Made by a program: the position numbers and the translations under genes. A DNA stretch of 64,000 bases, taken from NCBI GenBank assembly GCA_965238005.1, contig OZ250165.1, forward strand, positions 2,720,001-2,784,000, written 5' to 3'. The stretch comes from Longimicrobiales bacterium (GTDB lineage: Bacteria > Gemmatimonadota > Gemmatimonadetes > Longimicrobiales > Gaopeijiaceae). This document shows positions 3,349 to 40,446 of the stretch, in pieces (position 1 is the first letter of the stretch; the number at the start of each line of letters is the position of its first letter). The notes below the pieces were generated by a model. It was not told the origin of the DNA, did not search any database, and saw nothing but the letters and a program-made list of their open reading frames with translations.

Positions 3349-3590
3349 CTCCGTCACTGGCGGTCCGGGGGCCCGCACAGCCCGCCTCGCGGATCTGCGT
3401 CACCCCCGGGCCCTGGCGGCGCCCCGCCCCGGACTGCCACGCGGCGCAGGCGCCGAGACAGCTCGAGGGAATATCCGCCGAGATCGCTCTGGGATCCGTA
3501 CCGCCGGCTTCCCCCACCAAATCCTTCACCAGATACGCGTAGCGCGCCCGGGACGCAGACCTGTGACGTTCCCCGGACAGGTTGCTGGGT

Positions 3591-3905
3591 TCAGTCCCAG
3601 TCGCCTTCGGCGTCCCTCTTGAGCGCGCGGGCGAGCTCGGGATCGCCCTCACCGCGGCGGACCGAGCGCTCGACGAGGTCGACGCGGCGCCCGAGGTCGG
3701 CGAGTCCGGCAGCGCGCGCGACGCCGTAGATGGCGGCCGCAACGGCTGCAAGCCCCAGCGCCACGTGGAAAGCGATCGCAAGGCCGTGGTCCGCGAGAAT
3801 CACGGGCCAGAACGACGCGAGATACTGGAGGCGGGACCCGGCGAGGAGGAAGGCGGAGCCGACAAGTGCTGCGCTGAGCCCTACGCTGATTCTCCAGGGT
3901 TGCAT
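3591..3905 (-). CDS. Small membrane protein of the ICE backbone (paralog at 52536-52850)
   Basis: 104 aa with two hydrophobic segments; full-length conserved paralog. Confidence 0.8.
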   Translation of the reverse strand: MQPWRISVGLSAALVGSAFLLAGSRLQYLASFWPVILADHGLAIAFHVALGLAAVAAAIYGVARAAGLADLGRRVDLVERSVRRGEGDPELARALKRDAEGDWD

Positions 3906-4744
3906 GGCGGTGTGCTAGAGCTCGAGCGTGGCCGGGTCCCGCTCGGCGGGACCTCGTATGGAGCTGCGGTCGCCGTCTTGGCCCAGTGCTTGAAGCACCC
4001 GTGCGCGGCCAGCGGCTCCGTTGGCATGGACGACGAACCCGGCGTTGGCCTTGGCTCGGATGGAGGGGGCCCGGTAGTTACCCGAAGCGACCTCAATGTT
4101 GACACGTCCGGTCCGCCCGTCGGCGTCGACGCACTCGATCTGGGCGTCCGGATAGAGCACGCGGCCCCGGGCATCTATGGGTAGGCCGAGTTCGTGGGCG
4201 GCGCGGTGCCGCTCGGCGTCGGCGGCCCGCCGGCCGTCTCTCGCCCGCGCGGACTCGCTCTTGCGTGCTACGGCGCTCTTGAGCTCGCCGTCGAGCCGGA
4301 CGCGCCGGATGGCGGCGCCCTGCGTGAGCAGGCGTTGGTGCTCCAGCCGGCAAGCGCGATAAATGGCAGTGTCGTGTGCGGCTTCGGCGGGCCGGGTACG
4401 TGCGAACCCGATCTCCTGACCGGGATCCAGCCCTCGCGCGGAGGCCAGCTCGCGTGCGGCGGCGCCGCCGCTCCGTGTGAGGGTCAGGACCTTGAACGGC
4501 CTTCCCTTTGGTCCCTTGGCCGTGGACTCCTTGACGAGCCCTTCGCGGATCCAGGCGTTCACGGCCCGCCGCGTGGTGTAGGGATGCCCGCCGAAGTGAG
4601 CCTCGGCGAGATCGCGGTACGAGACGGCGCCGTAGATGCCGATGTCGGCGAGCGCCCCACGGCACCGTTCTCTGAAGGAGGTGGACCCGCGGTCCCGGCT
4701 CGCGTCGTATTCTCGGCGATGGCCGTCCCGCATGCGGTAGCTAG

Positions 4745-6345
4745 GAGTCTGCGCCGCAGAACCCTGCGGCGGCTATCTTTGGTGGTAGCGAAGGCATTGG
4801 GAAGGCTTGCGGATCACCGAGGGGGGTGAATGGGAACGACATTTCGACCGTACGATCCGGAGCAGATGTTGTTGCTGCCTCCGGATCTTCGGGAGTGGGT
4901 GTCGGAGGGTCATTTGGCGCACCATGTGAGCGACCTGGTGGACGCGGTGGAGCTGAGCGCGTTCTACGGGCGGTACCGGGGGGACGGGCGGCGCAACTCG
5001 CCGTACGACCCTCGGATGATGGTCAAGGTGCTGATCTACGCGTATGCGACGGGCACCTTCTCGTCGCGGAAGATGGCGAGGAAGCTGGAGGAGGATGTCG
5101 CGTTTCGGATGCTGGCGGCGGAGAACTTCCCGAAGCACCGGACGCTGTGCGAGTTCCGCAAGCGCCATCTCGGGGATTTCCGGGCGGTGTTTGTGGAGGT
5201 GGTGATGCTCGCGCGGGCCTTGGGGCTGGCGGGGCTTGGCAGGGTGTCGGTGGACGGGACGAAGGTTCGGGCGAACGCGAACAAGCGCAAGGCGATGAGC
5301 TACGGCCGGATGGTGACCGGGGAGCCTCGGCTGGAGGCGGAGATCCGGGGGCTGTTGGAGAGGGCCGAGGCGGTGGACGAAGCGGAAGACGAGCGCTACG
5401 GCGAGGAAGCATGCGGAGACGAGGTGCCGGAGGAGCTCAAGCGGCGCGAGGACCGGCTGGCGGCGATCCGGGAGGCGAAGGCGCGCCTGGAAGCCGAGCA
5501 GAGAGCGGCGGACGACGCACGGGGCCGCAAGCCGGGGCAGACGCGCAACCCGAAGGGCGGCAGGCCCTACAAGCGGGAGTACGGAGAGCCGGACGAGGCG
5601 GCGCAGAGCAACTTCACGGACCCTGAGAGCCGGATCATGAAGACGAGTTCGGAGGGGTTCCAGCAGTGCTACAACGCACAGACGGTCGTGGAGGGGGAGA
5701 ACCAGCTGGTGGTCGGGGCCGAGGTGACGGACAACGCGAGCGACCAGGGCCAGCTGGTGCCCATGGTCGACGCGGTGGCGCAAGCGTACGGCGAGACGCC
5801 GGCGCAGGTGCTGGCGGACACGGGCTATTGCAACGAGCGGGATCTCGAGGAACTGGAAGAGCGAGACATCGACGGGTATGTGGCGCTGGCCCGGGAGGGC
5901 AAGGCCGCCCCCACGGTTGACAAGGAGGAATATCCGGCGAAAGTCCGCATGGCGGAGAAGCTGGCGAGCGAAGATGGCCGCAGACGCTACGCACGGCGAA
6001 AGTCGCAGGCCGAGGCGCCCATCGGCTGGATCAAGGAAGTGATGGGCTTTCGACGATTCAGCTACCGGGGCCTCGAGAAGGTCCGGGCCGAGTGGACCCT
6101 CGTGTGCCTGGCACTCAATGTGAAGCGGCTGCACACCCTTCAGGCGGCATGACTGCACGAGGGTTCACCCGCATCTGCCGGCGCGAGGGCTCTCGTAGCT
6201 CTCTTGCCCCCCCAACGCATCCATTCCGCTCTCCCGATCCGTCGCAGACACAAGTCCTCAACCTCCCAATCACCCGGATCCGCCTCGCCGCGGACGGCTC
6301 GATGACCATTCGGCTCAGTCAGCTGTGCTTCTGCGGCGCAGACTC
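4745..6345 (+). mobile_element. Complete IS1182-family element with 17-bp terminal inverted repeats and a CTAG target duplication
   Basis: gagtctgcgccgcagaa (4745-4761) / ttctgcggcgcagactc (6329-6345); CTAG at 4741-4744 and 6346-6349; the empty site matches the paralog near 51685-51710. Confidence 0.95.
4830..6152 (+). CDS. IS1182-family DDE transposase
   Basis: LLLPPDLREWV..H, YDPRMMVKVLIYAY, VDGTKVRANA, NFTDPESRIM, ADTGY, GFRRFSYRG. Confidence 0.95.
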   Translation: MGTTFRPYDPEQMLLLPPDLREWVSEGHLAHHVSDLVDAVELSAFYGRYRGDGRRNSPYDPRMMVKVLIYAYATGTFSSRKMARKLEEDVAFRMLAAENFPKHRTLCEFRKRHLGDFRAVFVEVVMLARALGLAGLGRVSVDGTKVRANANKRKAMSYGRMVTGEPRLEAEIRGLLERAEAVDEAEDERYGEEACGDEVPEELKRREDRLAAIREAKARLEAEQRAADDARGRKPGQTRNPKGGRPYKREYGEPDEAAQSNFTDPESRIMKTSSEGFQQCYNAQTVVEGENQLVVGAEVTDNASDQGQLVPMVDAVAQAYGETPAQVLADTGYCNERDLEELEERDIDGYVALAREGKAAPTVDKEEYPAKVRMAEKLASEDGRRRYARRKSQAEAPIGWIKEVMGFRRFSYRGLEKVRAEWTLVCLALNVKRLHTLQAA

Positions 6346-6425
6346 CTAGCGCGGTTTTGCGGCGCGGCGGGCCGCGGGTCCGATCCGATCGTGCGGTCGA
6401 GCATCTGTCGACTCCTTCTTTGGCG

Positions 6426-7454
6426 TCAGCGGCCCGGACCGAAGTTCCGTTTGGGGAGCGGCAGCGGGAGCTCCGGCCTTGCGGCGTGCTGCGGGTCGGG
6501 AGCCCGAGTGGCGGCCACCGGAGTGGGCTCCCGCTCGGCCTGGCGCTCGCGGCTCCGGGCCAGCACGAAGTCGGAGATCTTCTGTGCGTCGGCCGCGGCG
6601 CGGCGGATCTCCCTTGGGTCTTCCTCGAGGGCAGTGACCCACCCCTCGACGTAGGCGGCCCCTCGGCTCGGGTCATGGCCGACGCCCACGCGCTCGCCGG
6701 TCATCATTGCGCTGATCTCCGCGCGGAGCTCCTCCTTCGCATAGGCCGGTGAGCCGAACCCTTCGCCGATCCCTTGGGTGAGCGTGGCGCGGTTCATCCG
6801 CTCGGGATGGCCCGTGCTGTGCCCCAGCTCGTGCAGCGCGGTCTGGTAGTAGTGGTTCGCCGAGGGGAACTGTCCCCTCTCCGGAAGCACGATCTCGTCG
6901 CGGTTCAGGTTGTAGAACGCCCGGTCGCCGGCCATGTGACGGACGGGGACCCCGCTGTCCTCGAGGACGCGTTCGGCCTGCTGGTGGACCTTCCAGAGCG
7001 GCTCGGCAGCGGGCGCGGGCCGCGCGGGCAACCCGTCGGCCTGCTCGGCGTTGAAGACGGTGTACTGCCGGACGACGGGCGCGCGCATCCGCTCGTATCG
7101 GTAGACGCGCTTGCCTTCGTTGTCCGTGACGGGCCGTCCGCGCTCGTCGTTGACGGCGATCTTCCGGTGGTCCTGGAAGGAGAGGATGCGGGTGCCCTGC
7201 TCGCCCTTCCGCACCTGTCCGCCCCGGGCTTGGATCTGGCGGTAGGTTCCCCAGCGCACGTCGCCGTAGCCGCGCTCCTGCTGGACGGCGGCAAGGTGCA
7301 GGCTGTTCCCTCCCGAGTAGGAGCGTCCGGTATCGACGTTCGCGGGAAGCACGCGCTCGCCCGGCCCCCAGGGCTTCTGCCAGGGCGCCGTGCCCTGGCG
7401 GATCTGCTCGATGACCCGGTCGGCGAACTGGCGGTGGTATTCGTCGTGTTTCAT
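6426..7454 (-). CDS. ardC: ArdC-family ssDNA-binding antirestriction protein with zincin-like C-terminal domain
   Basis: APWQKPW, YSGGN, WGTYRQIQARGGQVRKGE, VFNAEQ, HELGHSTGH, YAKEELRAEI. Confidence 0.92.
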   Translation of the reverse strand: MKHDEYHRQFADRVIEQIRQGTAPWQKPWGPGERVLPANVDTGRSYSGGNSLHLAAVQQERGYGDVRWGTYRQIQARGGQVRKGEQGTRILSFQDHRKIAVNDERGRPVTDNEGKRVYRYERMRAPVVRQYTVFNAEQADGLPARPAPAAEPLWKVHQQAERVLEDSGVPVRHMAGDRAFYNLNRDEIVLPERGQFPSANHYYQTALHELGHSTGHPERMNRATLTQGIGEGFGSPAYAKEELRAEISAMMTGERVGVGHDPSRGAAYVEGWVTALEEDPREIRRAAADAQKISDFVLARSRERQAEREPTPVAATRAPDPQHAARPELPLPLPKRNFGPGR

Positions 7455-7681
7455 CGGTCTTCCTCCTCCCGGCCGTGCGGATCCTCCGAGGCGTCCCGGA
7501 TCTCGTCTTCGGTGCCCACGTCCTCGGGGAAGAGGCCGTACTCTTCTGCCAATGAGGCCGGGACCTGGAGGGTCTCGCCCCCGTCCCGTCCGAGCTCGCG
7601 GTCGAAGTCGTCGAGCGTCTCGACGCGGACGATCTTCTCGTCGCTTTCCATGTCCTCACTCCTTTTCTGTTTGTTCTTCAT
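7451..7681 (-). CDS. Small acidic hypothetical protein
   Basis: Lies between virB11 and ardC; its stop overlaps the ardC start (ATGA). Confidence 0.6.
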   Translation of the reverse strand: MKNKQKRSEDMESDEKIVRVETLDDFDRELGRDGGETLQVPASLAEEYGLFPEDVGTEDEIRDASEDPHGREEEDR

Positions 7682-7925
7682 CGTCCTTCCTCCAGACGGG
7701 TTCGGTGAGCCAGCGGTTGGCGGCCGCCTCGTAGCCCTTCACACGGAGCGCTTCCTCGACGAACCTCCGGCCCCCTCGCCGGGTCATGTGGACAACGAGC
7801 GAGATGCCGTCGACGACGCCCCTGCAGGTCACCTCCCAGGGGAGCGCGCCTCCGGCCTGCATGGCGCAACTCGCCAGGCGCGAGAGCGCGGAGCGGGCGT
7901 TGTTGGCGTGCACGGTGGTGAGCGA
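7656..7925 (-). CDS. virB11: VirB11/CpaF-family secretion ATPase, C-terminal part (split by E1)
   Basis: SLTTVHANNARSALSRL continues NTGHGGSL of the 14169-14889 part. Confidence 0.9.
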   Translation of the reverse strand, partial: SLTTVHANNARSALSRLASCAMQAGGALPWEVTCRGVVDGISLVVHMTRRGGRRFVEEALRVKGYEAAANRWLTEPVWRKDDEEQTEKE

Positions 7926-8425
7926 GCAGCTATCAACGATGTGCTTTAATCGTCGTAACTATATGATATATAGTTAGTTACAGATGAAGTAGTTTTTGGT
8001 ACGACTCGTTTCTATCGTATGTGATCCCGTATAAGCGGCGGGCGATTACACGGGAGCGTACGGTACGTTCGCGGAACCCGTGACGGGTTCTGCCTTCGGC
8101 GTCGCGCGGGGCTGAGGAAGACCCGGCAGGTGACGACGTGGCGATCCCGAAAACTGGAATCTCGTCGCGACGGCGGGGGCGTTCGGGCACATGCTGGCGA
8201 CGCGCGATGAGGCAGTCCCGAAGCGGGCCGGACGGTATGCGTTCGGGTCAGGGGATTATGAGGCCCTTGCGGGCAAGGTGTTTTCACAGGTCTCGCGGAG
8301 AGCGGGAAGACTCGCCAGAGGCCGAGAAGCCCTCAAGATGGGTCAGAGAAAGGGAGGGGAGGGTCCCAGGCTCCTGAGGGTCCTCCCTCCAGCTAGTGCG
8401 CTTCGGATCGCCCGCCGAACTCGAT

Positions 8426-9375
8426 CTATAGCCTGAACTTCGATTTGTGGATGTGGAACCATTCGCTAACCGCGTCGATGGCTACGCCCACCTGATCTCG
8501 CAACGTGCCAGCGCCGTCGCGAAGAGCCGCATCTGCAGCTTCCTTCGTTGCTACCACCTTCTCTACGGCAGCAGCGCGCGTGTCGTCCCCGATCGCCTGC
8601 CAGATGCGCTCACCCGAATTCCACGCGTACAAGCTTCCACCCACTCCTGCGAAACCCACCAGCACCGGAGTGCCCACAGTGACACCCAGCGCGCTCGCCG
8701 TGGCAACTACGCCGACTGTCGAACCGACGACAGCCGTGGCAATACTGACCGACCGCGCGAAATCAAGCACCGCAGTCCAAGCGCCTTTCGCCCGTTTACC
8801 ACGTGCAGCGTCTCCACAGAAGCTGAGACGGGCAATTCCACCAGGGCGCCGATTGCGCCGCCCCTCGCGAGGCTGGCCAGAATTGGGCGACGTGCAGCTC
8901 CCAAGCCCATGCGGGCGTTGTGCGTGTGCATCCGCAGCTTGTCCGGGAACCCCATGTCTCTGGGACCACGTCCTTGGTTCCATTTCGGAGGCTCAAAGAC
9001 CACGTTACCGGCGCTGGCCGCCAATTCGGGATGGCGATTCACTGATCGTATATGACTCACGTCATGGACGTCGAGAAAGCCCAGTACCGCCTTCCCACCT
9101 GCCACCCGAACACCGCCGGGAATCTTCCTATAGAGATCCTCCGCAGTTACCCGGCCGACATTTGCTCTCCAATTGACCGTCGATGCCCGCTGATTCAGCC
9201 TCGTGTGAACTTTGGGCAGGTCACTCAATCTCGCGGGAATGAGTTCGGCCCAGATTTTCTCCACCCACGGAGTCATGACTGAAGCTGCTTGCGACTGCAA
9301 ACCGACATTAGCGTGAGCTGACAGAGGTCCAGCAACTGCTAGGGTGACCAGAATGATGGTCACAAAGACCCTCAT
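8426..9375 (-). pseudogene. Secreted HNH-like protein with a hydrophobic C-terminus; apparent frameshift near 8790
   Basis: Signal peptide MRVFVTIILVTLAVAGPLSAHA; DVSHIRSV..HPELA...NVVFE...NQGRG; Gly/Ala-rich TM tail in a second frame. Confidence 0.5.
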
Positions 9376-9795
9376 GGCTCTCCTCATGCGGGAAGCGGAC
9401 GACTGCCGGAGTGCGTCATCGGTACGCAACGGCCCGAGCACGGCAGACTGACCCCGTCATCCTAAACGTAAGTCCGGACGGCCACCTGCGTCCATGTCCG
9501 TTGCGCTCCCTCAGCGGCTTTCAGAGCGGCGATCACAGGTGGCCCCGAAGGCCCCACGGGGCCGTGACCCGGGGAGTTCGTCTGTTTCACGACCGCGGCA
9601 GGGCCGAGAGGAGCCCTCAGTGGCCGTCAGAGCCGACTTCTCGGCGCCGGATGACCCACAGGGGACCCGGGGATCCACTGCGGACGGTCCTCTCACACAT
9701 TGCGGAGCGCTATCGGTACGGTTTCTTATTGAGGCTGCGCCGCTGATAATCGTCAGCCTGCGTGCAAGCCATATTGCCAAGGGGTTACCCGATAG

Positions 9796-10560
9796 ATGAG
9801 TCTCGCTCAGGCAGTGGTGCAAGCAAGCCGCGCATTCGACCACGTCGCCCGCCGGACATGGTGCGTCAAACCGGCTGTGCCGATTCTTTTTTTCGGCGAC
9901 CTCGACGCGTATCGAGCTTCGCCGCTACACGTGCTGACGGTCGGACTGAATCCCTCGCGGCATGAGTTTCCGGCTGACCAGCCGTTCCTGCGCTTTCCGC
10001 TCGCAGAAGGCGGCCTTGGCGGGGAGCCATCCCGGTACCTCGAAGCAATGTCCGCCTATTTTCGAATCGCCCCCTACGACGGGTGGTTCAGCGCCTTCGA
10101 GCCGCTGCTCAACGGCATGAAGGCGAGCTACTACCACGGCGGCGCATCGACGGCGCTCCACACCGACATCTGCTCACCCGTCGCGACGAACTCGACGTGG
10201 AACGACCTCGACAAAGCTGATCGTGAAGCACTCGAGTCCGATGGCGGCCCGCTCTGGCACATGCTTCTGGAGGAGCTAGAGCCACAAATCGTGGCTCTGT
10301 CGGTGGCGAAGGCTCACCTCGAGGGCATCAAGTTCACGCCCTTGACCAGTTGGGAGGTCATCCACGCCTTCGAGCGGACAGGCAGCGGCGCCCTTCGGTC
10401 CCGACCGTACGAGGTCCACGCACGGTGGTACGACGTAGGCGGTGAACGGTCGCTGTTCATCTTCGGCAGAGCAGCTCAGAAGCCCTTTGGGCTGCTGGCC
10501 AACACCCACAAGCGCAAGGCAGGCGCGGTGGTACTGAAGGCATATCAGGATGGCCGATAA
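9796..10560 (+). CDS. Uracil-DNA-glycosylase-superfamily-like protein
   Basis: PILFFGD...VLTVGLNPS motif and later LEPQIVAL strand. Confidence 0.6.
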   Translation: MSLAQAVVQASRAFDHVARRTWCVKPAVPILFFGDLDAYRASPLHVLTVGLNPSRHEFPADQPFLRFPLAEGGLGGEPSRYLEAMSAYFRIAPYDGWFSAFEPLLNGMKASYYHGGASTALHTDICSPVATNSTWNDLDKADREALESDGGPLWHMLLEELEPQIVALSVAKAHLEGIKFTPLTSWEVIHAFERTGSGALRSRPYEVHARWYDVGGERSLFIFGRAAQKPFGLLANTHKRKAGAVVLKAYQDGR

Positions 10561-11539
10561 GCGTTGCTTCGTTCAGTTCCCGCACCCGGGGGGCGAGCAC
10601 CGACCCGACCGTAGCGGAAGTAAGCCGTGGCACACCCGGGCAAGCAGCCATGCGCGGAAGTTCATGCAGTTCCCTGGCGAGTGGATTGCGTCGGACGACA
10701 GCCCGCACCGCGGCGAATTGTGGGCGTGGGGCGAGTGGGAGCCCGAGTCGCGCCTCATTCGTGAGCTCGACCAGTCCCGTGGCAACCGGGACTATCCGCG
10801 TTACCTCTGGCAGCCGTACTACGTCCTGAGGGACAACTACCGGGGACTGCACAATACCGACCCGTTCATCTTCGGCGAACGCTTCCTCTATTCGAACTGC
10901 CGTCAAGGGGCCCACAGCCCCGGCTTGATGCGCCTCGGTGAGGGGTCCGTGATCGCCTTCGGCAGCGGTAAGCAGGGAGTCGGGGGCGAGTGGAGATGGT
11001 GGCTCGATACCGTGTTCGTGGTCGCGAATTCCGATCTCTATCCGGTATCCGAGGCAGACCGGGTGCTGAAGGACTGGACGTCTGACGTGTTCGGCATCGT
11101 GACCGGCGGACCGCTCGCCGACAACCACGAAGGCGGGTGCGCAGCGGACGTGCGGCTCAGGCTCTATCGGGGCGCGACGCCGGACGATCCGGTGGACGGA
11201 ATGTTCAGCTTCTTCCCCGCGCAGCCCGCCGGTGACGGGACGGGCTTTCCGCGACCGGGCATCGACCTGCCAAGCGAGTACTTCAACCCCGCCTGCTATA
11301 TAGCTCCCAAGGGGGTCAGCCGCGAGCACTGCCGCGATCAGCTACACTCGATCTGGATGGCCCTCGTCGCGCAGGTGCGGCAAGCCGGGCTCGTGCTCGG
11401 CACATACGCGGAAGTGCCACCACAACGGGCACACACGGGTGCTTCTAACGATCTGAACACCGACGGAAACCGTTCTCTGGGAACGACCGCTCAGGTCCCG
11501 CTCAGGGCACCGAGATGCGGCAGATGTGCACAGCCATGA
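10550..11539 (+). CDS. Hypothetical protein overlapping the UDG-like gene; possible modified-nucleotide-binding protein
   Basis: 329-aa aromatic-rich ORF with HPGGEH, WGEWEP, NTDPFIFGERFLYSNC, GSVIAFGS. Confidence 0.7.
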   Translation: MADKRCFVQFPHPGGEHRPDRSGSKPWHTRASSHARKFMQFPGEWIASDDSPHRGELWAWGEWEPESRLIRELDQSRGNRDYPRYLWQPYYVLRDNYRGLHNTDPFIFGERFLYSNCRQGAHSPGLMRLGEGSVIAFGSGKQGVGGEWRWWLDTVFVVANSDLYPVSEADRVLKDWTSDVFGIVTGGPLADNHEGGCAADVRLRLYRGATPDDPVDGMFSFFPAQPAGDGTGFPRPGIDLPSEYFNPACYIAPKGVSREHCRDQLHSIWMALVAQVRQAGLVLGTYAEVPPQRAHTGASNDLNTDGNRSLGTTAQVPLRAPRCGRCAQP

Positions 11540-11629
11540 TCAGCTCCTCCTCACAGCCTCTGCCACGTATGGGCAGGTGGAGGACTTGATGATCCAGGCT
11601 TCCGAGCGTCGGGCGACGAGTTCGTTTAA

Positions 11630-11940
11630 TGTACGAGAGCCAGCATACCCCTTGGGGCCACGCTTCGCGGGTCCCGGGCAGGGGCTGGCGAGGGGTAGCT
11701 CCGCCCCCCTTCGAACCCCCGAGGCCCGCGCTCCTGCGGAGTGCTTTGCCCCCCTCCCCCTTGCCGGTGCGCTGATGGCTGAGCGCCGCACGTCACCGCC
11801 GCCGCCCGCGTATCGCCAGCTGAGCTCACCGACTGGCGGGCCACGGCAACGGTCGCTGGCGTGCCTCTCTCGGAGCTGATGCGGCAAGCCATGGCACGCG
11901 CACGGACGTGGGCCGCCCCGACATCGGCGGAGCGAGTGAT
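11630..11940 (+). pseudogene. mobC: Degenerate oriT-like module followed by a frameshifted mobC remnant
   Basis: MAERRT/VTAAARVSPAELTDWRATA..GVPLSELMRQAMARARTW matches the mobC starting at 50260. Confidence 0.75.
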
Positions 11941-11967
11941 ATTGAACCCACGCTACCATTGGGAGGC

Positions 11968-12606
11968 ATGCCGATGACGGGCACCGTGGTCGGATACGAC
12001 CCTGGTGGCAACCGCAAGCATGGACTTGCGTGGGCGACGGTTGAAGACGGGAATATCGTCAACGTGACTACGAAGACCCTCTGCAACGTTGAGGAGGTGG
12101 TTGCATTGATTTTCGATATCGAAACACCCCTTGGGCTCGGTATCGACACCCTCACCTGCTGGGGCACTGGTCGCAGTGGCTGGCGTCCGGCGGATCGCTG
12201 GCTTCGACGGCGCTATCCCGACGTGCAGAACAGCGTCCAAGCGCCAAACTCCCTTTACGGGGCCATGAGCGTCAGCGGAATGGCATTGCTGGTCGCCGTG
12301 CGACAGGCCTTCCCCGACATCTTCGTTACCGAAACCCACCCCAAGGTGCTGTACCACGCGCAGTGCAACGAACGCTACGACTACAACGGCCCGAACACAT
12401 CCGTCATGAACAAGCACCTGAGTCGATTGCTCGCCGTCGATGTCGCACTTCAGAACGAGCACGAGTGGGACTCTGCCATCTCGATTCTCGCGGCCGTCCG
12501 TGGACTTCATGGGTTATGGCAGCGTGACCTGCACGCTCTGCCGACCGATTCCGACGAACGTTTGGTGCAGCCGTGCGGCAGGACGGCCTACATGTGGCCC
12601 GAATAG
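11968..12606 (+). CDS. DUF429-like RNase H-fold predicted nuclease
   Basis: VVGYDPGG, LGIDT, WRPADRWL, ETHPK, HEWDSAIS; GGAGG RBS. Confidence 0.75.
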   Translation: MPMTGTVVGYDPGGNRKHGLAWATVEDGNIVNVTTKTLCNVEEVVALIFDIETPLGLGIDTLTCWGTGRSGWRPADRWLRRRYPDVQNSVQAPNSLYGAMSVSGMALLVAVRQAFPDIFVTETHPKVLYHAQCNERYDYNGPNTSVMNKHLSRLLAVDVALQNEHEWDSAISILAAVRGLHGLWQRDLHALPTDSDERLVQPCGRTAYMWPE

Positions 12607-12679
12607 AATGTCGGGCCGGTCATCCGGCTCCCAACCCCACTAGCCGGCCCTCGGACTCGCGAGGCTTTTGGAGCGGATC

Positions 12680-12790
12680 GCTCGCGAACTCCGCCGGAGC
12701 GCGCGCCTCCAGGGGATCGAAGGGGCGGAGCCCTCGCCAGCCCCAATGTACCCACATTGGGTAGGCTGGCTTAAGCACCTTAGTCTCCGC
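12680..12790 (+). other. oriT-like site directly downstream of the E1 integrase
   Basis: Hairpin cccaatgt/acattggg (12742-12761) followed by CTGGCTTA (12766-12773), the ColE1-type nic consensus. Confidence 0.7.
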
Positions 12791-12818
12791 CTGAGGTGCC
12801 GCGACGGTGGGCTGCAAC

Positions 12819-14006
12819 CTATGGCTTGCGACTGTCGCCGGTGAGGTACGCAGCCCAAAGCTCCATCAGGACGCGCCTGCGCTCGAACAGGTCGGAACGA
12901 GCGTAGGCGGCCTCCGCCTTGTTGCGGACCACGTGCGCCAAGGCCGCCTCCATGACCGCATGGGGGGTGTCCGTGCATTCGGCCGCCCAGTCCCTGAAGC
13001 TGGACCGGAAGCCGTGCGGCACGGCCGCGATGCCCAGTCCTCGAAGCAGCCTGGGGAGGTTGGTGTCGGAAAACACGCGGCCCTCCGGCGACGGGAACAC
13101 CAGACCGCCACCACCGCCGAGCGTCCGCGCCTCCTCGAGGATCACCATGGCGCGCCCGGACAGCGGCACCCTGTGGGGGCGCTGGGCCTTCATGCGCTCA
13201 CCGGGGATGGTCCACTCGGCCGTCTCGAGATTGATGTCATCCCAGCTTGCCAAGCGAACCTCACTGGAGCGGCACGCCGTCAGCACCAGGAACTCGAAGG
13301 CGAGCCTTGTCGTGAGGGTCGACGCCGAAGTCCGGGCCGCCTCGATCGCGCCCGCGACCTCCGCGTGAGGCAACGCGCGCATGTGCCGGACTACGACGCG
13401 CTGTCGGCCGAGCGCTTGACCGAGCACATCGCCAGCGGGGTTGTCCGGCCGAAGCTCCATCGCCACCGCCCACTTCATCACCGCCCCGATGCGCTGGCGC
13501 ACCCGCCGGGCGGTCACCTGCTTGTCGTGCCAGATCGGTGTCAGAACCGCCAGAACGTCGGCTGTCGTTATCTCGCCGACCGGTCGATTGCCCAGCTGTG
13601 GGAACGCATAGACGCGCAGGCTGGTGACCCAGTCCTTCGCATGCTTGGCGGTACGCCAGCCCGGCCGCAGCTGTTCCAGAACACGGGCGGCCGCCTCGGC
13701 GAACGTGGGCATGTCCCGGATCTTGTGCCGCTCGGTACGCGGATCGCCGCCCGAGCGCGCGATCTTGCGGTTCATGAATGCCTTCTCGCGCGCCTCGGCC
13801 AGCGATACCAGCTGGTAGCCCCCGAGCCCCATCGTGCGGGGTCGGCCCTGGATCCGTAGACGCTGCTCCCATCGGCGCGCGCCGGATCGGTCCACGCGCA
13901 GATAGAGGCCGTTCCCGTCACAGTAGTATCCGGGCTTGGCACTGCGCACGAAGGCCGCGCTGAGTGCGTTGTGCGGGCGTCTCCCTCGGTGTTTGGGCAA
14001 ATCCAT
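12819..14006 (-). CDS. int: P4-like tyrosine recombinase/integrase of E1
   Basis: Arm domain YCDGNGLYL; LTACRSSE, MKAQRPHRVPL, HGFRSSF, LAH, AY. Confidence 0.95.
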   Translation of the reverse strand: MDLPKHRGRRPHNALSAAFVRSAKPGYYCDGNGLYLRVDRSGARRWEQRLRIQGRPRTMGLGGYQLVSLAEAREKAFMNRKIARSGGDPRTERHKIRDMPTFAEAAARVLEQLRPGWRTAKHAKDWVTSLRVYAFPQLGNRPVGEITTADVLAVLTPIWHDKQVTARRVRQRIGAVMKWAVAMELRPDNPAGDVLGQALGRQRVVVRHMRALPHAEVAGAIEAARTSASTLTTRLAFEFLVLTACRSSEVRLASWDDINLETAEWTIPGERMKAQRPHRVPLSGRAMVILEEARTLGGGGGLVFPSPEGRVFSDTNLPRLLRGLGIAAVPHGFRSSFRDWAAECTDTPHAVMEAALAHVVRNKAEAAYARSDLFERRRVLMELWAAYLTGDSRKP

Positions 14007-14168
14007 TTCCTATATCCCGTATAAAGTATCGTATGACATGTACGGGAACATAGCGGACATACAGCGACTCTGTAACCCGGAGTGTAGTTATATAACTAAC
14101 TGCTATACTGAGAGTTATATAACCTTACCGGACACATATGGATTGTATTGGAATTTATGTACTGGAGA

Positions 14169-14889
14169 TGAGCGATCCGCCGTGGCCAGTGTTCAGCGCT
14201 TGGAGGAGATCGGCGGCCTCGCCGCCCCTGACCTCTCCGACGACGATGTGGTCGGGCCGGTGGCGGAGCGCGTGCCGGACCAGGTCGCGGATCGACACGG
14301 GCGCGTCGGAGCCGACGGCTCCGGCCTCGAAGCGCAGGCAGTTCGCGCGCTCGATCCTGAGCTCGAGCGTGTCCTCGATGGCGACGATCCTCTCCTCCTC
14401 GGGGAGCAGCTCGATCAGTGCGTTGAGGAGTGTGGTCTTGCCCGAGCCGGTGCCTCCGGAGACCAGGATGTTGCGCCGCGAAGTGAGAGTGTCGCGGGCG
14501 GCGCGGAACACCGTCTCTGGCAAGGCGCCCTGGCCAACGAGGTCTTCGGCCGAGAACGCGCGGCCCCCGAACCGGCGGATGGTCATAGCCACGTGGGGGC
14601 TTGCGGGCGGCGTGCATATGGCGACCCGGGAGCCGTCCTCGAGCCGCGCGTCTAGGACGGGCCGTGTGGCCGGATCGAGCCCGAGCGGCCTGGCGATGTG
14701 GATGGCCGCCCGGTAGAGTGCCGCGGCGGTGAGCGCCGGTGCCTCGATGGGCTCGAGCTCTCCGCCGCGCTCGACCCAGACGTTGCCGGGGCCGTTGATC
14801 ATCAGCTCGGAGACCTCCGGATCCTCGAGCACGGCCTCGAGGCCGGGCAGAAACGGCTTCAGATGCCCGATCCCGCTCGCGCGCTTCAT
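14169..14889 (-). CDS. virB11: VirB11/CpaF-family ATPase, N-terminal part (split by E1)
   Basis: GGTGSGKTT Walker A, IEDTLE, RHRPDHIVVGEVRG, NTGHGGS; ATGA overlap with the virD4 stop. Confidence 0.92.
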
Positions 14890-16168
14890 AGCCGGCCCTC
14901 CTCGCGGAGCCGCCAGTAGCCCGTGCTCCTCGGCAGGTAGTGGGGCTGCAGGTAGACCCGCCGGGCCGGAAGGGACTTCGTGCCGTCGTAGGGCAGGCAG
15001 ATCGCCTGATAGTTGGCGAGGAGCGTGAAGTCCCTCGGCGTGAACACCGGCTCCCGTGCCTGCCGGAACGACTTGCTCGCGCCGATCGTGCCCCGTCCGC
15101 CTCCGGCGCGTCCCGATAGCAGCGAGAACTCCGGCCTGCCCGTCGTCTCGGTGAACGTGTAGGACGGCTGCGTCTTCATGACGCTGCCGCACATCTCCGA
15201 TGCGATCCGGGCCGAGGACTCGTCGCTCAAGGACAGGAAGATCCGGGTGCGGAGCGTCTGGACCAGGGTGCGCCACGCGTCCGTGCCCGACAGCACGGAG
15301 CGGAGCGAGGAGATCGACTGCGTCGCGACGATCGGGATGCAGCGGCACTGCCGCGTCAAGGCGAACGCCTTCTCGTCGCCAGCGGGGTCGTCCTGGCCCA
15401 CGGTCGCGAACGCTTGGTACTCGTCGCAGATGAACACGGCGGGCCGGAGGTAGCGGCCGGGCCGGCGGGCGGCCTCGGCGGGCCGCCGGAGCAGCGCCTG
15501 CATCCAGGCGTTCTTGAGCAGCACGCCGATGGCGCGTCCGAGCGCCGGGTTCGCGCCGGCGGGCATGTTGAGGGCCAGGACCCTGCCCCCTTCGATCAGC
15601 TCGGCGAGCGGCGGCAGGCGGCGGCGAAGGCCCGGCATGGGCCGGACGGCCGCCGCATCCTCGTCCGGTGTCTCCTTATATAGATGTGTGGGCGCATCCG
15701 GATCCGGAGGCGGCGGACAGAACACGCTCGCGACCTGCGGCTGGTCGAAGAGCGAGAGGAAGACGGAGATGCCCTCGACGATCGAGGTGCGGAGCTTGGC
15801 ATCGAGCGCCATCCAATCGTTCAGGTACCAGCGCTCGATCGCCTCGACCTGGTCCTTGAGTTCGCTGCCTGCGCCGCTCTCGCCTTTCTCGGTCTCGAAC
15901 GGGATCTCGAACTCGGCGAGCCGATCCCGGAGGACCGGGTCGAGCCGGCACGTCACCGTGTCCTCACCGGAGGTATATATCCAGACCCAGTCATTCAGCG
16001 CTTCCGGATGGCCGATCATGTCGTCGTGGGAGATGACGACGCGCGCCGGGCACGCCTCAGCCACCAGGTCCTTGGCCTCGCGGATTCTCTCGGCGAATAG
16101 TTCCGCGTCGATCGTGCAGCGGTAGATGTCCTGCAGCGTGACCCAGCCCCCCGGCAGGAGCCGGTGCA
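14886..16168 (-). CDS. virD4: VirD4/TraD-like coupling protein, C-terminal part (split by E2)
   Basis: FICDEYQ Walker B, IVATQSISSL, SARIASEMCG. Confidence 0.88.
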
Positions 16169-16369
16169 ACCTATCTAAAAGGCTCGTAAGTCGTTGTGGG
16201 TATTACCTAATCGGTTTGCGCGTGTCTAACAGTGCCCCCAGAGTTGCCCCATAATCGCACCCGCATCCAGCGCTCGCCATCAGCGTCCATTGCGATCCAG
16301 CATAGCGGAGCCATCGTCTCGGCCCCGCGGGTGCCAGCTGGCCGGCGCGGCCGCCCCGCAGGGCAGCCT

Positions 16370-16700
16370 AGTAAGATCATGCTATATCATCCGAGGCAGC
16401 CCTACGGACTGCCTCGGACAGCTAAATAACTCATTTTATACAAACGAGTTATATATTTAGCGACGGTGCTCTGCCCCCCATTATTTCCACCGGGACGAAA
16501 CGGATTTCCTCGGCCCTTCGTGGCCGTGAACGGACGCGTCAGTCCGAATGCCACGCGGCCACGCGCCCAAGGCCGAGCGGCTGAGCGTGGGGTCGGTGAT
16601 GCTCCGATCCGTACCGCCTGTGCCCAACCGACCCGGCGTCACGCCGCCCAACCAGTGGGTAGCATCTCCGCCTGTTCGAGTACCGCCCGCATCGCCATCA
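16370..16700 (-). repeat. attP-like junction plus ~300-bp distal end of an E3-family element (inverted homolog of 46431-46729)
   Basis: Reverse complement reads ccgaggcagt-CCGTAGGG-ctgc, i.e. E3 right end + core + start of the E3 left end. Confidence 0.8.
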
Positions 16701-16701
16701 A

Positions 16702-17472
16702 TCACGATCCGGTCGTTGAGTTCGAAGTTACCCCCGCCGACGGGCAGATGGGTCCCATGTAGCATTCGCCGCACGCGGGTGCCCGCCTTGCGTGACACCA
16801 CGTGCGTCCGATCTGCCATGTTGGCCAGTCAAGCTCTCCGGGCCAATCCGGGTTGAGTTCGCGAGCGCGCAGCTGGAGCCCAATCTTCTGTTTCTCCGTG
16901 GTCGACCGTAGCTGGCTGTGTTCGAACCCTGGGAGAAGGTCCAGTCGCTTCCACACGCGTAGGACGTGAGTATCGACGGGAATGTCGGGCCTGGGCGTCG
17001 GGAGCTCGATGCCGAAGTCGCGGATCAGGATGTTCGCCGCCATGCTGGCAATCTTCGGACCCACACCGTCAAACTCCAGGAACCGTCTGGCGACTGCAAC
17101 ACCGCTGCTTCCGTTGGCCCAGATTCGTGCGGCGTCCCCGCCGTACCTGTCGCCGATAAGTCGGATGGCTGCGGGAAGTAATCGCTCCATGTCGGTGGCC
17201 AGCCGGTGGCCGGATGACGCGAGTACGGAGGACCAGACACTCCCCCGAAGCCCCGCTAGGGTCTCGAACTCGAAGTCCCCCGCGGCCTTACAAATCGCGT
17301 GTGGAAGGCTCCATGCGATATCGGCTTGCGTTTGACGGTCGGCGATGCACGCCAGCACGAACGCGTGCGGATAATGCTCAAGGTCGTTCACGAGGTCGCG
17401 CGCGGCGGGCTCGACGGTGATGCCGGAGACGCCACGCTCCTGCTCGAGCGAATCCTCACCGAACCGCTTCAA
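16702..17472 (-). CDS. HhH-GPD/endonuclease III-like DNA glycosylase with Fe-S motif
   Basis: FDGVGPKIASMA HhH, PVDTHVLRV, C-x6-C-x2-C-x5-C. Confidence 0.88.
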   Translation of the reverse strand: MKRFGEDSLEQERGVSGITVEPAARDLVNDLEHYPHAFVLACIADRQTQADIAWSLPHAICKAAGDFEFETLAGLRGSVWSSVLASSGHRLATDMERLLPAAIRLIGDRYGGDAARIWANGSSGVAVARRFLEFDGVGPKIASMAANILIRDFGIELPTPRPDIPVDTHVLRVWKRLDLLPGFEHSQLRSTTEKQKIGLQLRARELNPDWPGELDWPTWQIGRTWCHARRAPACGECYMGPICPSAGVTSNSTTGS

Positions 17473-17804
17473 ACATGAGACGATGCGGTTTATCTCTGCC
17501 AGATAGAATCCCCCCTCATGGCCCTAGTTGCCTCAACTTGGAACCAAGCAACTGGACCCGTCTGTCTTCACAGCGGTCGCTCTCGCCGAGGCGGAGAATC
17601 CCGAGCGCGTGGAGCTTGCAGGTGGCCGACCCGCAGACCGGGCCGACGAAACCGGCCAAGACCTCTGAGCTAAGCCGACTGCTGAGAATCAACGTACGGC
17701 CACGGGCCTTCGCATCAAAGCCGAACTCCCTTCGTGGACTACGACGGCCCCCATCCCTCGGCCCGGTCCTCTCCGTGCAACTTCCCGGCGGTGTTCAGCC
17801 GCAG

Positions 17805-17934
17805 CGCGGCGCTGGCACACAAAGGTCCGCAACCAGATCGAGGCAGCGTATCGGCGCACGGACCTGTTCGAGCGCCGACGGCGACTCATGGACGATTGGG
17901 CCGCGTACCTCGCCGGTGGAAGCCGCAAGCCATA
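17805..17934 (+). pseudogene. Integrase C-terminal remnant, followed by an oriT-like site
   Basis: VRNQIEAAYRRTDLFERRRRLMDDWAAYLAGGSRKP*. Confidence 0.85.
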
Positions 17935-17969
17935 GGTTGCAGCCCGCCGTCACGGCACCACAGGCGCAG

Positions 17970-18095
17970 GCTAAGGTGCGTAAGCCAGCCCACGCAATGT
18001 TAAACATTGCGAGCTGGCGAGGGGGGTGCTCCGCCCCCCCTTCGACCCCCCGAGGACCCGCGCTTCGGCGGATTTCGTGGGCGGGGGACTCCCCC
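17970..18095 (-). other. oriT-like site
   Basis: CTGGCTTA on the minus strand (17981-17988) next to hairpin cgcaatgt/acattgcg (17993-18011). Confidence 0.7.
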
Positions 18096-18226
18096 CGGCC
18101 ACGGGCCATACTCTCGCTCTGGCCCATGCTCGGACCGCAAGACGCCGTGGACCGTGGATGTAAGCGTTCGGCGGGGCCATGAGGATGGCGCCGGACTTGG
18201 CCCACAACGGGGCTCCCTGACGGGGC

Positions 18227-18346
18227 GCGCGAGGTCATCGAAGCAACCCTCGCGCATGTGGCCCAGAACAGAGTGGAGGCGGCCTACCGGTGCTCGGAGC
18301 TGCTCCAGCGCCGACGCAAGCTGATGGACGACTGGGCTGCCTGTTG
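18227..18346 (+). pseudogene. Second integrase C-terminal remnant
   Basis: REVIEATLAHVAQNRVEAAYRCSELLQRRRKLMDDWAA. Confidence 0.8.
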
Positions 18347-18383
18347 ATGCTGCCTATTTTTCACGATTGAACTGTGCCAAGCA

Positions 18384-19118
18384 TCACCGAGACGATGGGA
18401 GGCGTTTGCCCAACTTCCAGATGCCCCTAAGGTGCATCATGTCAACCATTGGATTATACTCGCGGCCAAGGTTCTCTACAAAGAGCTTTGCTTTTCTCTC
18501 ATCGAACCTGTCGAAATCGTCAGCATCAGCGAGGAATTCTGATATATACCGAACCGCGTGACTTGCCCTTTCGAGCATGACGATAAATCGGTTAGCGTAC
18601 ATTGGGTGAACGACTTCGTTCATCATATGTATACCGAGGCGCCGCAAATCGAATTTTTGGAGAACTTCGTATATCGCATCAGTGGCATCGGAGATGTCAT
18701 TGACTGATTGTGGACCGATTCCGGAGCCTTCTAGAGACTGCTTCTCGTCAGCATGAGCGATGGTCTTGTTTCTGGCGACACGAGCAGATTTCGTGGCTTC
18801 CTTTGCCTTTTTCAAGGCATTCTCGATATCCACACGTAGCTCATCATCGTCATCACAAAACTCCAACAACCGTTCCACACTGACATTTGTCTTGGATCCT
18901 GTCTTAGGAGGGTCCGTCAGTCGCGATAACCGCAGAATCAAGTCATCCCAGAGCCTTGGCCAAATGTAGAGGTGAAATAAATCGCCGCCAAAAGGGTCAA
19001 TCGTTTGTCGTGCATCTAGCTCGCTGAACAAGTCCTTGTAGCTGTCGAGCGACCATTTCAGAGTAGTCCAATCCTCCCACAGCTTCTCGTGTATCTCAGC
19101 AGCCTTCCCTTCAAGCAT
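18384..19118 (-). CDS. HEPN-domain (AbiU2-like) protein
   Basis: ILRLSRLTDP and RNKTIAH motif; lower GC than the flanks. Confidence 0.7.
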   Translation of the reverse strand: MLEGKAAEIHEKLWEDWTTLKWSLDSYKDLFSELDARQTIDPFGGDLFHLYIWPRLWDDLILRLSRLTDPPKTGSKTNVSVERLLEFCDDDDELRVDIENALKKAKEATKSARVARNKTIAHADEKQSLEGSGIGPQSVNDISDATDAIYEVLQKFDLRRLGIHMMNEVVHPMYANRFIVMLERASHAVRYISEFLADADDFDRFDERKAKLFVENLGREYNPMVDMMHLRGIWKLGKRLPSSR

Positions 19119-19595
19119 GATCGTCGTTCCGTTCGCCCGAGCCCCGCTGATCGTCTGCCTCTACTGCCCGCGGTGCGCCAGCTTGGGCGACGCCAAGGCC
19201 AGCAAGCGCCCCGATGACGTTCTGGTGCGGATCGTGCCGGAAGCGGTTCAGCGTTCGCACGGATTCGGTCTTGGAGCAGACGCGGCTGCCCCTGCGTAAG
19301 TGGGTGATCGCCATCTACCTTTACACGACCAACCTTAAGGGCGTGTCGAGCATGAACCTCCACCGCGACCTGGACATCACCCAGAAGTACGCGTGGTTCA
19401 TGCTTCACCGCATCCGCAAGGCGTGGGGCGGCCAGTCGGCCAGCTTCTCCGGGCCGGTCGAGGTTGACGAAACCTACATCGGCGGGAAAGAGAAGAACAA
19501 GCACTCATCGAAGCGGCTTCGGGCTGGCCGTGGCGCGGTCGGGAAAACGGCGGTCGTCGGAGTCAAGGACCGCGAGACCAACAAGGTCGCGGTCG
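19119..19595 (+). pseudogene. IS1595-family transposase fragment
   Basis: Zn-ribbon CPRC/CGSC, KGVSSMNLHRDL, VEVDETYIGG. Confidence 0.9.
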
Positions 19596-19900
19596 GCTTG
19601 CCATATCCGTTGCGGTAGCCCTCGGCCGAGTCCACCGTACTCCTGCGCTCTGACCTCTCCCGGCCTAACAACTCCGTGACTTCCTCCTCCATGATCTGTT
19701 GGATGAACTCCTGCGCCTTCTCCCTAACCATCCCCTCGAGCGTCTCCCACATCGGCCTGCTGGACGCACCCTGGGGTCCCGCGATATCCTCTCTCATGAG
19801 GCGACGTTCCTTTCCCCGGGCTGTCACCCGGGCTCGCTGGTTTAAATCTCAGCGCAAAGGTGCGTCGCCTCTCTTTTTACACACCCTTTGATCCTAGCTC
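19596..19900 (-). pseudogene. IS256-family left end and transposase N-terminal fragment
   Basis: EEEVTELLGRERSER...GYRNGYGKP; terminal IR gagctaggatcaaagggtgtgtaaa starting at 19900. Confidence 0.85.
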
Positions 19901-19918
19901 GGAGCTGGAGGGGTTGGA

Positions 19919-20749: not shown

Positions 20750-20767
20750 CCCACCAACCGTCCCCGC

Positions 20768-21487: not shown

Positions 21488-21613
21488 CTGCCCTACCTCC
21501 TCCGTTGGGTGCCTGGCGAGAAAGATCGTCTGATGCGAGGGGCTGGACCAGCGTCGTCCATCCCGTGGGTCGTAGAACGAATTAACTAGACACGCTCCAC
21601 CACGTCGGCGATC

Positions 21614-21740
21614 GAGGTTGGGTCAATAGGTGTGTAAACGTATCAGGCGGCATTCTTCCGCTGTTGTGTTGAGACGGGCTTTCCGTCTTCGAACTTCCTT
21701 CCTTCAAACACGTCCTTGAGGAGGTGAGGAGCGCTCGATC
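21614..21740 (-). pseudogene. IS256-family transposase C-terminus and right IR
   Basis: APHLLKDVFEGRKFEDGKPV...AA*; IR gaggttgggtcaataggtgtgtaaa matches the IR at 19900 at 20/25 positions. Confidence 0.75.
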
Positions 21741-21885
21741 TGAGCGCGGGTCATGAGCCGTTCACGGTTATCCAGCGTCAACCGGGCGTTTGCGGCAGCG
21801 AAGCCACTCGGGTCGGTCGGAGGATCATGCCATCCATCTCACTGGGGGTCTTGTGGGAAAGTCTTACAAAATGTAAGATAGGATC

Positions 21886-22982: not shown

Positions 22983-23205
22983 GCGGCCGGATAGAGGTAG
23001 GAGTACGGTAATCGCCTGAAACCCGGCCTCACCGAAGTGAGGGTCTACTCGGCTGGTTGCCGCCCGCGGACCGAGGACCAGTGGTTTTCTTTGGCCCTGC
23101 ACGGTGAGCGTAGCGCGCCGGGACGGTGGAGGTCGCCCACACCACGACCTTCTGCCGATCAGCTACAGGTGCGCGGTGCCGACGCGGACGATTCGCCCAA
23201 TTCCT

Positions 23206-32752: not shown

Positions 32753-32779
32753 GGCGCTGGCTCATGACCGGTTACCTGT

Positions 32780-40437: not shown

Positions 40438-40446
40438 AGCTTATTC

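Follow-up and report, generated by a model that had tools for sequence, protein, structure and literature searches.

An integrase-bearing island at the His-box codons of a VirB11-family ATPase gene in a Longimicrobiales genome

Does an island that lies within the catalytic motif of a conjugation ATPase gene represent a mobile intruder, a removable lock or the scar of a past event? This question is raised by a stretch of 64,000 nt (hereafter, the window) of the genome of a Longimicrobiales bacterium (Gemmatimonadota; assembly GCA_965238005.1, contig OZ250165.1, positions 2,720,001 to 2,784,000; 4.84 Mb, single contig), in which an element called here E1 interrupts a gene of the VirB11/TrbB/CpaF family of ATPases. 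E1 almost certainly reached its place by site-specific insertion and, as read from its frames, the ATPase copy that it splits is unable to yield a full ATPase, no substitute half being supplied by E1. We favour, with moderate confidence, the view that E1 is a selfish and probably still mobile island, whose landing pad is a conserved, multi-copy and host-dispensable sequence carried on mobile DNA. Coordinates are those of the window unless stated to be genomic, and those of the main features are collected in Table 1.

E1 is bracketed by two copies of a 7-bp core that reads TGAGCGA on the forward strand, i.e. TCGCTCA in the sense of the ATPase gene (reverse strand), and measures 6,250 bp (insert plus one core copy). 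The gene is split at ...NTGHGG/SLTTVHAN..., within the His-box codons (GG/SL/TT). On the N side, the open reading frame (ORF) at 14155-15348 (reverse strand) ends in ...LQALNTGHGGSLISST followed by a stop, i.e. ...EAADLLQALNTGHGGSLISST and the stop at 14155, the frame thus running four codons past the core into E1. On the C side, the frame read down from 7949 comes out of E1 as LKHIVDSC and continues as SLTTVHANNARSAL... (SLTTVHANNARSALSRLAS...) to a stop at 7656, and a stop codon lies inside E1, eight codons upstream. In gene sense, the N side reads ...GGCGGA, the core, then TCTCCAGTACAT, and the C side ...ATAGCTGC, the core, then CCACCGTGCAC. Both ATPase pieces are free of stops and frameshifts. 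The Pfam model T2SSE is matched over profile positions 13-238 by the N piece (residues 176-390) and over positions 239-263 by the C piece (residues 9-33), the latter match starting from the S of SLTT, which is encoded by the core. The initial annotation of this DNA had proposed that TGAGCGA is duplicated and acts as a 7-bp core, that the gene is split exactly at the His box and that E1 brings no replacement gene half; these proposals were borne out, respectively, at both junctions, by the T2SSE matches together with the DNA of intact paralogs, and by the stops four and eight codons into E1.

The intact form of the gene is available in the same genome, in which tblastn identified seven other loci at which residues 1-395 of the N piece and residues 9-97 of the C piece are matched in one continuous frame, the two matches overlapping by 12 nt at all seven. 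In gene sense, these paralogs read ...GGCCACGGCGG[A/C/T], then TCGCT[C/G]A, then CCAC[C/G]GT[G/C]CAC, with no indel at any of the seven loci. Since they are continuous across the junction, the empty site is known to the base. The closest intact paralog (L081) was aligned to a solved CpaF structure (8rkd, E 4.1e-50) over residues 13-300 and without gap across ALNTGHGGSLTTVHANNARSAL; further structure matches were Brucella VirB11 (2gza, 1e-36) and HP0525 (1g6o, 5e-32). A junction indel relative to homologs was thus looked for, and none was found among the seven paralogs or against CpaF. A census with full-length VirB11 references gave nine loci, i.e. the seven uninterrupted ones, the one split by E1 and a C-terminal remnant at ~660.7 kb of the genome that also adjoins an E1-like end. 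At this last place (genome 660437-660963, ~148 kb from c512, the integrase locus closest to that of E1), the end is an orphan E1-like distal end, and the core is degraded.

As for the family, we considered as VirB11/TrbB/CpaF ATPases those proteins having Walker A, Asp box, Walker B and His box in this order in one chain of ~310-340 aa; the two pieces, which jointly cover T2SSE 13-263, carry this arrangement, the chain being cut GHGG/SLTT in the window. From the first ATG (14856), the rejoined frame counts 227 + 89 = 316 codons. A 397-aa ORF starting at 15348 was rejected as the true N piece, as its first 164 codons overlap the type IV coupling protein (T4CP) gene and both the paralogs and the family models begin at the ATG at 14856. 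NCBIfam models matched the truncated piece below their cut-offs only (TIGR03819 TadA, 189 bits for a cut-off of 373; TIGR02788 VirB11, 172 for 250; TIGR02782 TrbB, 159 for 305). The gene context is conjugative, with the T4CP gene directly upstream, an ArdC gene downstream and VirB4/TrbE pieces nearby. The label 'VirB11-family' rests on the family assignment and on this context (T4CP, VirB4/TrbE, ArdC). The name VirB11 given initially is supported to that extent, the best solved match being a CpaF and the NCBIfam scores falling short.

E1 encodes a 395-aa integrase that matched Arm-DNA-bind_3 (1.8e-17), Phage_int_M (1.1e-27) and Phage_integrase (9.5e-13, profile positions 3-168 of 172), all above the Pfam cut-offs, and scored 161.5 against NCBIfam NF007246, below the cut-off of 434. 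Residues R246, K273, H331, R334, H358 and Y368 are invariant in all 11 aligned relatives (43-67% identity; L029, which has an internal stop, was left out of the alignment), and we take these six columns, from their spacing, to fill the catalytic R-K-HxxR-H-Y roles. By its domains and residues, the protein is an intact P4-type three-domain tyrosine recombinase. TGAGCGA is a short overlap of the 6-8 bp kind, identical in the left and right attachment sites (attL and attR) and flanked by arm sites. The two ends of E1 are non-coding and AT-richer. The integrase-distal arm (end-A) is conserved at 78-92% in sister elements and recurs at three other genome places (78-87% identity); the integrase-proximal arm (end-B) recurs at four (78-83%), one of which is a partial remnant at 2850-2948. 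This remnant is of the type of E4, a sister element described below, with core CGGTTGG and a VirB4-like flank, and has no intact integrase to its left. In the 64 kb, the motifs CCCGTATAW and TATCGTATG have four copies each (0.21 and 0.15 expected), and every copy sits in the end of E1 or of a related element. An alignment of 10 distal ends contains indels of variable length, which argues that end-A is not coding. Arms are conserved between elements, and cargo is not.

Taken together, these features suggest how E1 could have entered. The attachment site of the free element (attP, ...CTGGAGA TGAGCGA GCAGCT...) would recombine with the same 7-bp sequence within the His-box codons through strand exchange by the integrase. 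Integration would truncate the ATPase after GHGGSL and four foreign codons, with loss of the His box and of the C-terminal 87 residues. Conversely, recombination of attL with attR by the integrase, i.e. excision of E1, would rejoin the gene exactly, and would need a directionality factor supplied in trans besides the integrase. The initial annotation had also foreseen restoration by excision: its exactness is supported by the intact paralogs, while the product would be of 316 aa and not of 327 aa. The insertion may have been tolerated because seven intact paralogs exist in the genome and the module hit was already crippled.

Table 1. Position of E1, of its parts and cargo, of the split ATPase gene and of neighbouring features
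Feature	Position	Strand	Remarks
ArdC-like gene	6426..7454	-	downstream of ATPase gene, part of T4CP-VirB11-ArdC module
ATPase C-terminal piece	7656..7925	-	89 codons + stop, starts SLTTVHAN
Left core copy TGAGCGA	7919..7925		at junction with VirB11 C-terminal piece
E1 body	7926..14168		exact borders, where homology to 7 intact paralogs ends
Attachment arm end-A, integrase-distal, non-coding	7926..8223	+	TATCGTATG at 8013, CCCGTATAA at 8026
Cargo ORF, 244 aa, hydrophobic N-terminus	8707..9441	-	no family match
Cargo ORF, 254 aa	9796..10560	+	widespread, highly conserved unnamed family; weak uracil/thymine-DNA-glycosylase fold leads
Cargo ORF, 329 aa	10550..11539	+	widespread unnamed family; paired with upstream ORF, fused in some relatives
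Cargo ORF, 232 aa	11908..12606	+	no family match; GC3 0.73
Tyrosine integrase, 395 aa	12819..14006	-	Arm-DNA-bind_3 + Phage_int_M + Phage_integrase
Attachment arm end-B, integrase-proximal	14007..14168	+	CCCGTATAA at 14016, TATCGTATG at 14027
Right core copy TGAGCGA	14169..14175		at junction with VirB11 N-terminal piece
ATPase N-terminal piece, VirB11/TrbB/CpaF family	14176..14856	-	227 codons, Walker A GGTGSGKT ... NTGHGG
T4CP gene, C-terminal 427 codons	14886..16169	-	directly upstream of ATPase gene; cut at 16168/16169 by E2
Element E2, 14.4 kb	16169-30579		9-bp direct repeat GCCGGTGCA at 16160-16168 and 30580-30588
Sister element E3	60553-65646 (beyond window end)	opposite to target gene	core CGTGGCG, inside VirB4/TrbE

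The junction GGCGGATCGCTCAT/CTCCAGTACAT of E1 recurs in two independently assembled metagenome-assembled genomes (MAGs) of Longimicrobiales, at loci L001 and L002, whose integrases are 95% and 94% identical to that of E1 and whose VirB11 junction and core are identical to those of E1. Compared with L001, synonymous divergence (dS) was 0.116 for the integrase, 0.23 for the T4CP gene, 0.35 and 0.25 for the two ATPase pieces and 0.35 for the ArdC gene; compared with L002, it was 0.131 for the integrase versus 0.45-0.54 for the flanking T4CP, VirB11 and ArdC genes. As the integrase is two to four times less diverged at synonymous sites than the genes around it, E1 is younger than the divergence of its host genes, which fits repeated independent site-specific insertions of the E1 clade at this site, rather than one inherited event, as far as such dS values can tell. 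The ratio of non-synonymous to synonymous divergence (dN/dS) against L001 was 0.11 for the N piece and 0 for the C piece (14 synonymous and no non-synonymous changes); E1 being younger than its host gene, this constraint mostly predates the insertion. A 161-nt probe over the right junction had matches in 51 of the 201 genomes searched in the order, or in 50 of 200 when its own genome is set aside. The E1 junction itself was found in none of the 200 other genomes sampled, in which matches start at the core or 6 nt before it and cover the ATPase flank only; in the genomes searched, the landing site is thus widespread and mostly vacant.

To compare E1 with its relatives, junctions of 22 elements were aligned, i.e. 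18 loci plus four elements of this genome (L005 and L039, whose integrases are partial, were excluded), and a quick maximum-likelihood tree of 36 integrases was built with Shimodaira-Hasegawa-like approximate likelihood-ratio (SH-aLRT) supports. What E1 and its relatives share is limited to the integrase, both arms and a short repeat found genome-wide, and does not extend to the 4.4-kb cargo. L001 carries a C5-methylase with Vsr and an acetyltransferase, L007 an outer-membrane barrel, and L002 a relaxase-like protein (PF03432, 2.6e-06), an Ig-domain protein and a second integrase. A junction in VirB4 with core TCAACCG was found at L006-L009, L012, L013 and L018 and in the sister element E4; TCAACCG or a one-base variant stands beside other flanks at L010, L011 and L017. 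L003 has a different core and flank, L004 a broken end, and L014-L016 are distant and unlike the remaining elements; at L039, a VirB11 C piece adjoins an E1-like end. The sister element E3 cuts VirB4/TrbE at ...AAKTW/RKKNAALIMATQ (KTW/RKKN). Its cargo includes an 801-aa protein with five fibronectin-III repeats, from 276-bp tandem repeats (61461-62864). E4 (core CGGTTGA) cuts the same VirB4 as E3, ~270 codons in, and its ends are inverted and 29.5 kb apart, at 58860-59112 (reverse strand) and, past the window end, at 88497-88662, the two junctions being placed at 59112 and 88650. From this layout, an inversion appears to have occurred between related elements or modules, and the VirB4 gene near E1 lies in three non-collinear pieces.

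On the tree, core and target labels clustered with the integrases, with 13 changes against a mean of 25.1 after shuffling (none of 200 shuffles was as low). E1, L001, L002 and c512 form one clade (SH-aLRT 98), of which three of the four members sit at the VirB11 core TCGCTCA, and the 11 TCAACCG rows group in a second (SH-aLRT 99), to which E3 is sister and in which eight of the 11 lie in VirB4. Closely related integrases (~84-86% identical in protein) are found with different 7-bp cores, in different catalytic-motif codons of conjugation ATPases. Among the 23 integrase homologs of the genome, 11 have a piece of a type IV secretion system (T4SS) ATPase gene at most 1.5 kb upstream, and eight of them abut a cut ATPase frame. 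Three modules have a distinct integrase clade in their coupling-protein gene, close to codon 545. Searching metagenome contigs returned integrase relatives of at most 67% identity, and neither an element of the E1 type nor a free attP.

Several observations weigh against the view of E1 as a specific and still mobile island. The integrase closest to that of E1 (c512, 97.5% aa identity, genome 510951-512303) has a non-VirB11 flank and core TCGCCCC, and three of the 11 TCAACCG elements have other flanks; either integrase specificity is not absolute, or rearrangements have moved element ends, as these junctions are read here. Four intact paralogs with an identical core are still unoccupied. Gene conversion among paralogous modules has left mosaic divergence between copies, which could blur the dS contrast. 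Excision was checked over 6400-16100 in assembled contigs of four public runs: among the joints listed, there was neither a circle joint nor an excised E1, and contigs cannot show rare forms. A joint from 7916 to 14173 was rejected as excised E1, six other letters assigning it to another intact allele, and loose ends at 7925/7927 lead on to other VirB11 alleles, i.e. intact paralogs or relatives. The initial annotation had named AlpA in connection with excision of E1; none of 57 stop-to-stop frames (45-130 aa, 7900-12900) matched AlpA, Xis or helix-turn-helix (HTH) families, and the 13 AlpA matches of the genome all lie outside E1, the sole one in the window being at 58355-58504. Pfam gave no relaxase domain in the four E1 cargo ORFs, one of the 57 small frames had a sub-threshold NikA-like match (E 0.019, 15.5 bits for a cut-off of 27), and Rfam gave no match at E <= 0.1 over 7600-14400. 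Of the features that define an integrative mobilizable element (IME), E1 therefore has its own integration/excision module and a site-specific insertion with direct repeats, and a mobilisation gene was not found. The absence of a directionality factor from E1 lends itself to another interpretation, that of a reversible lock or hitchhiker, in which E1 would be retained in the ATPase gene on purpose and a factor of the conjugative element such as AlpA would trigger its excision upon induction; the ATPase would be rejoined, and the excised E1 would be carried along by the transfer machine and re-enter the same site in the recipient. We regard this as unlikely, though worth considering. Exact restoration is possible, the integrase and arms are intact, and E1 has no directionality factor of its own, whereas the conjugative backbone copies carry AlpA genes. 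The lack of stops and the low dN/dS of the ATPase pieces also speak for a lock, as does an older insertion of another integrase in a T4CP gene, which has a dS of 0.33 versus 0.38-0.40 for the adjacent gene piece, with a dN/dS of 0.14; the same hypothesis appears, in the excerpts of PMC5704250 and PMC5357655, for IMEs in traG of Tn5252-type integrative conjugative elements (ICEs). This is countered by a site that is empty in nearly all relatives, by seven of nine VirB11 loci being uninterrupted, by the youth of E1 relative to its host gene, by a module whose T4CP gene is split by E2 and that has no intact VirB4 nearby, and by the lack of any relaxase found in E1, or of an origin of transfer (oriT), which the searches made here could not have recognised.

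The state of that module would suit a further reading, which we consider rather improbable: a fossil scar, i.e. a single past insertion of E1, now immobile, that marks a dead conjugation module amid decaying mobile DNA. The module does contain an insertion sequence (IS), a second element in the T4CP gene, a three-piece VirB4 and inverted duplications, and the contigs gave no excision signal and E1 no directionality factor; but the integrase frame is full-length with all catalytic residues, the core copies are identical and the arm motifs intact, and near-identical integrases (dS 0.12-0.13) occupy this site elsewhere in host genes that have diverged more, which indicates that the clade has moved recently. 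The structure is very unlikely to stem from chimeric joining of repeated modules in a metagenome-assembled chromosome: nine VirB11 loci and 23 related integrase matches do invite misjoins, yet both junctions bear an exact 7-bp repeat precisely where homology to the seven paralogs stops, the same junction is present in two independently assembled MAGs, and contigs from runs of two studies cover the E1 cargo without differences. The series of cores among relatives could even be extended into a broader proposal, to which we give little credence, that a radiating group of Longimicrobiales tyrosine-integrase islands retargets through the 7-bp overlap of attP to motif codons in all three T4SS ATPases, acting as removable locks that lack a directionality factor of their own and are freed by conjugative AlpA. 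The targets would be the VirB11 His box and, in VirB4, the 'TWRKKN' codons and a site near the N-terminus, while the coupling protein would be targeted by other integrase lineages. If true, the transfer machine could be built only once the islands are out and ready for carriage. The selfish and probably mobile island remains our preferred reading of E1.

Four likely cargo genes lie between the E1 arms, with GC contents at third codon positions (GC3) of 0.64-0.78, versus 0.84-0.85 for the integrase and the ATPase piece. No family was assigned to any of the four by Pfam, PADLOC, NCBIfam or PHROGs, and a PDB sequence search with two of them gave chance-level matches only. The families of the 254-aa and 329-aa proteins have 998 and 789 relatives, none of them named, at 55-87% identity; they co-occur on the same contigs, with some fused forms of 559 aa. 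The ESM Atlas offered leads only, with 26% of one cluster being Nmad3 (score 0.88) and 11% of one being UDG (0.93). AlphaFold models of cargo ORFs were poor (mean pLDDT 51.2 and 57.0), and Foldseek against PDB gave no cargo match at E <= 0.001; thymine-DNA-glycosylase chains recurred for the 254-aa ORF at E 0.24-0.9, and its family has an invariant GLNPS stretch. A glycosylase-like fold, possibly of a DNA-base-excision enzyme, is hence a weak lead for this protein. A G-rich repeat of 60-110 nt (GGGG..GCTCCGCCCCCC.TTCGA.CCCC) was also observed in E1 at 11637-11744 and 12679-12744; it is present at ~20 genome places, often directly downstream of integrase genes.

The split ATPase gene belongs to a repeated module made of the coupling protein, VirB11, a small ORF, ArdC and one more ORF. 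The coupling-protein gene is split by E2 at ...WIVELHR/LLPGGWV..., and only three coupling-protein genes and two VirB4 genes are uninterrupted in the genome. Because the T4CP gene is split by E2 and VirB4 is in three pieces, rejoining the ATPase alone would not revive the module. The genes of E2 include one resembling AbiU2 (18384-19118) and a pair for type III restriction-modification (23206-27398), as well as the decayed tail of an integrase (~17822-18000); next to its right end, E2 also carries a distant homolog of the E1 integrase, with 31% aa identity. Between ArdC and the next ORF of the module lies an IS (4740-6350) with a DDE transposase (DUF772 + DDE_Tnp_1), whose ~60 genome copies at 99.6-99.9% identity indicate a recent burst. 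Inverted backbone copies were observed at 3572-7269 and 50772-52869, and a pentanucleotide array, (AGCCG)n with ~27 units (53460-53594), upstream of the gene of a 1,292-aa Calx-beta protein (53799-57677). An integrase of the wider family (31451-32752) lies directly upstream of the coupling-protein gene start, and the cargo at this position differs between paralogous modules; a defence-rich stretch extends to 46400, with GmrSD (32772-33914), a type I restriction-modification system (37843-42903), a HEPN protein and DUF5131. No tRNA gene was found in the window.

The closest known systems are streptococcal IMEs with serine recombinases inside traG (VirD4), maff2 and snf2 of Tn5252-type ICEs (PMC5704250, PMC5357655). 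According to the excerpts of these papers, traG holds two IME sites, integrase families track the target, ICE induction is hypothesised to trigger IME excision and so restore the gene, and Tn6104 of Clostridioides difficile is grouped with the traG-type intragenic IMEs. As far as those excerpts describe them, the traG, maff2 and snf2 elements resemble E1 in being small, site-specific and disruptive of a conserved conjugation gene of an integrated conjugative element, and in that integrase relatedness tracks the target, with up to two elements per gene. They differ in their serine recombinases, in their Firmicute hosts and in usually having mobilisation or replication genes, whereas E1 has a P4-type tyrosine integrase, long att arms, a 7-bp overlap, a Gemmatimonadota host, a VirB11 His-box target and no relaxase found. 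The excerpt of PMC5704250 further describes IMEs that have a tyrosine integrase and insert at the nic site within oriT of Tn916- and ICESt3-type ICEs, in Streptococcus agalactiae; as there described, they share with E1 a tyrosine recombinase and a conserved conjugative-element sequence as bacterial attachment site (attB), and differ by a non-coding oriT target instead of catalytic-motif codons.

Outside conjugative elements, skin in sigK and Sa3int phages in hlb are intragenic like E1, without replacement half, precise excision rebuilding the gene; their targets are host developmental or virulence genes and their excision is regulated, while E1 occupies a gene of another mobile element and its excision is a prediction. 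The comK phage is a further intragenic prophage-like switch. Classical P4-type islands, among which CP4-57 is controlled by AlpA, insert at the 3' end of tRNA or tmRNA genes and rebuild the gene end. E1 has the same three-domain integrase as such islands, with AlpA-family genes near related elements, and differs by its mid-gene position, with no tRNA in the window. A literature search over titles and abstract openings gave no report of tyrosine-integrase elements in virB11 or virB4, nor of such elements in Longimicrobiales. When an island settles in a gene of another mobile element, it determines whether that element can still spread, and E1 provides a testable case of nested elements as saboteurs of a conjugative element or as its hitchhikers. 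It extends intragenic nesting beyond Firmicutes and serine recombinases, to an uncultured phylum, and its family offers a natural series for how tyrosine integrases change target with freely swapped cargo. E1 thus follows the same logic as the Firmicute cases, with a different recombinase class, phylum and set of targets, and with a series of core changes visible among close relatives.

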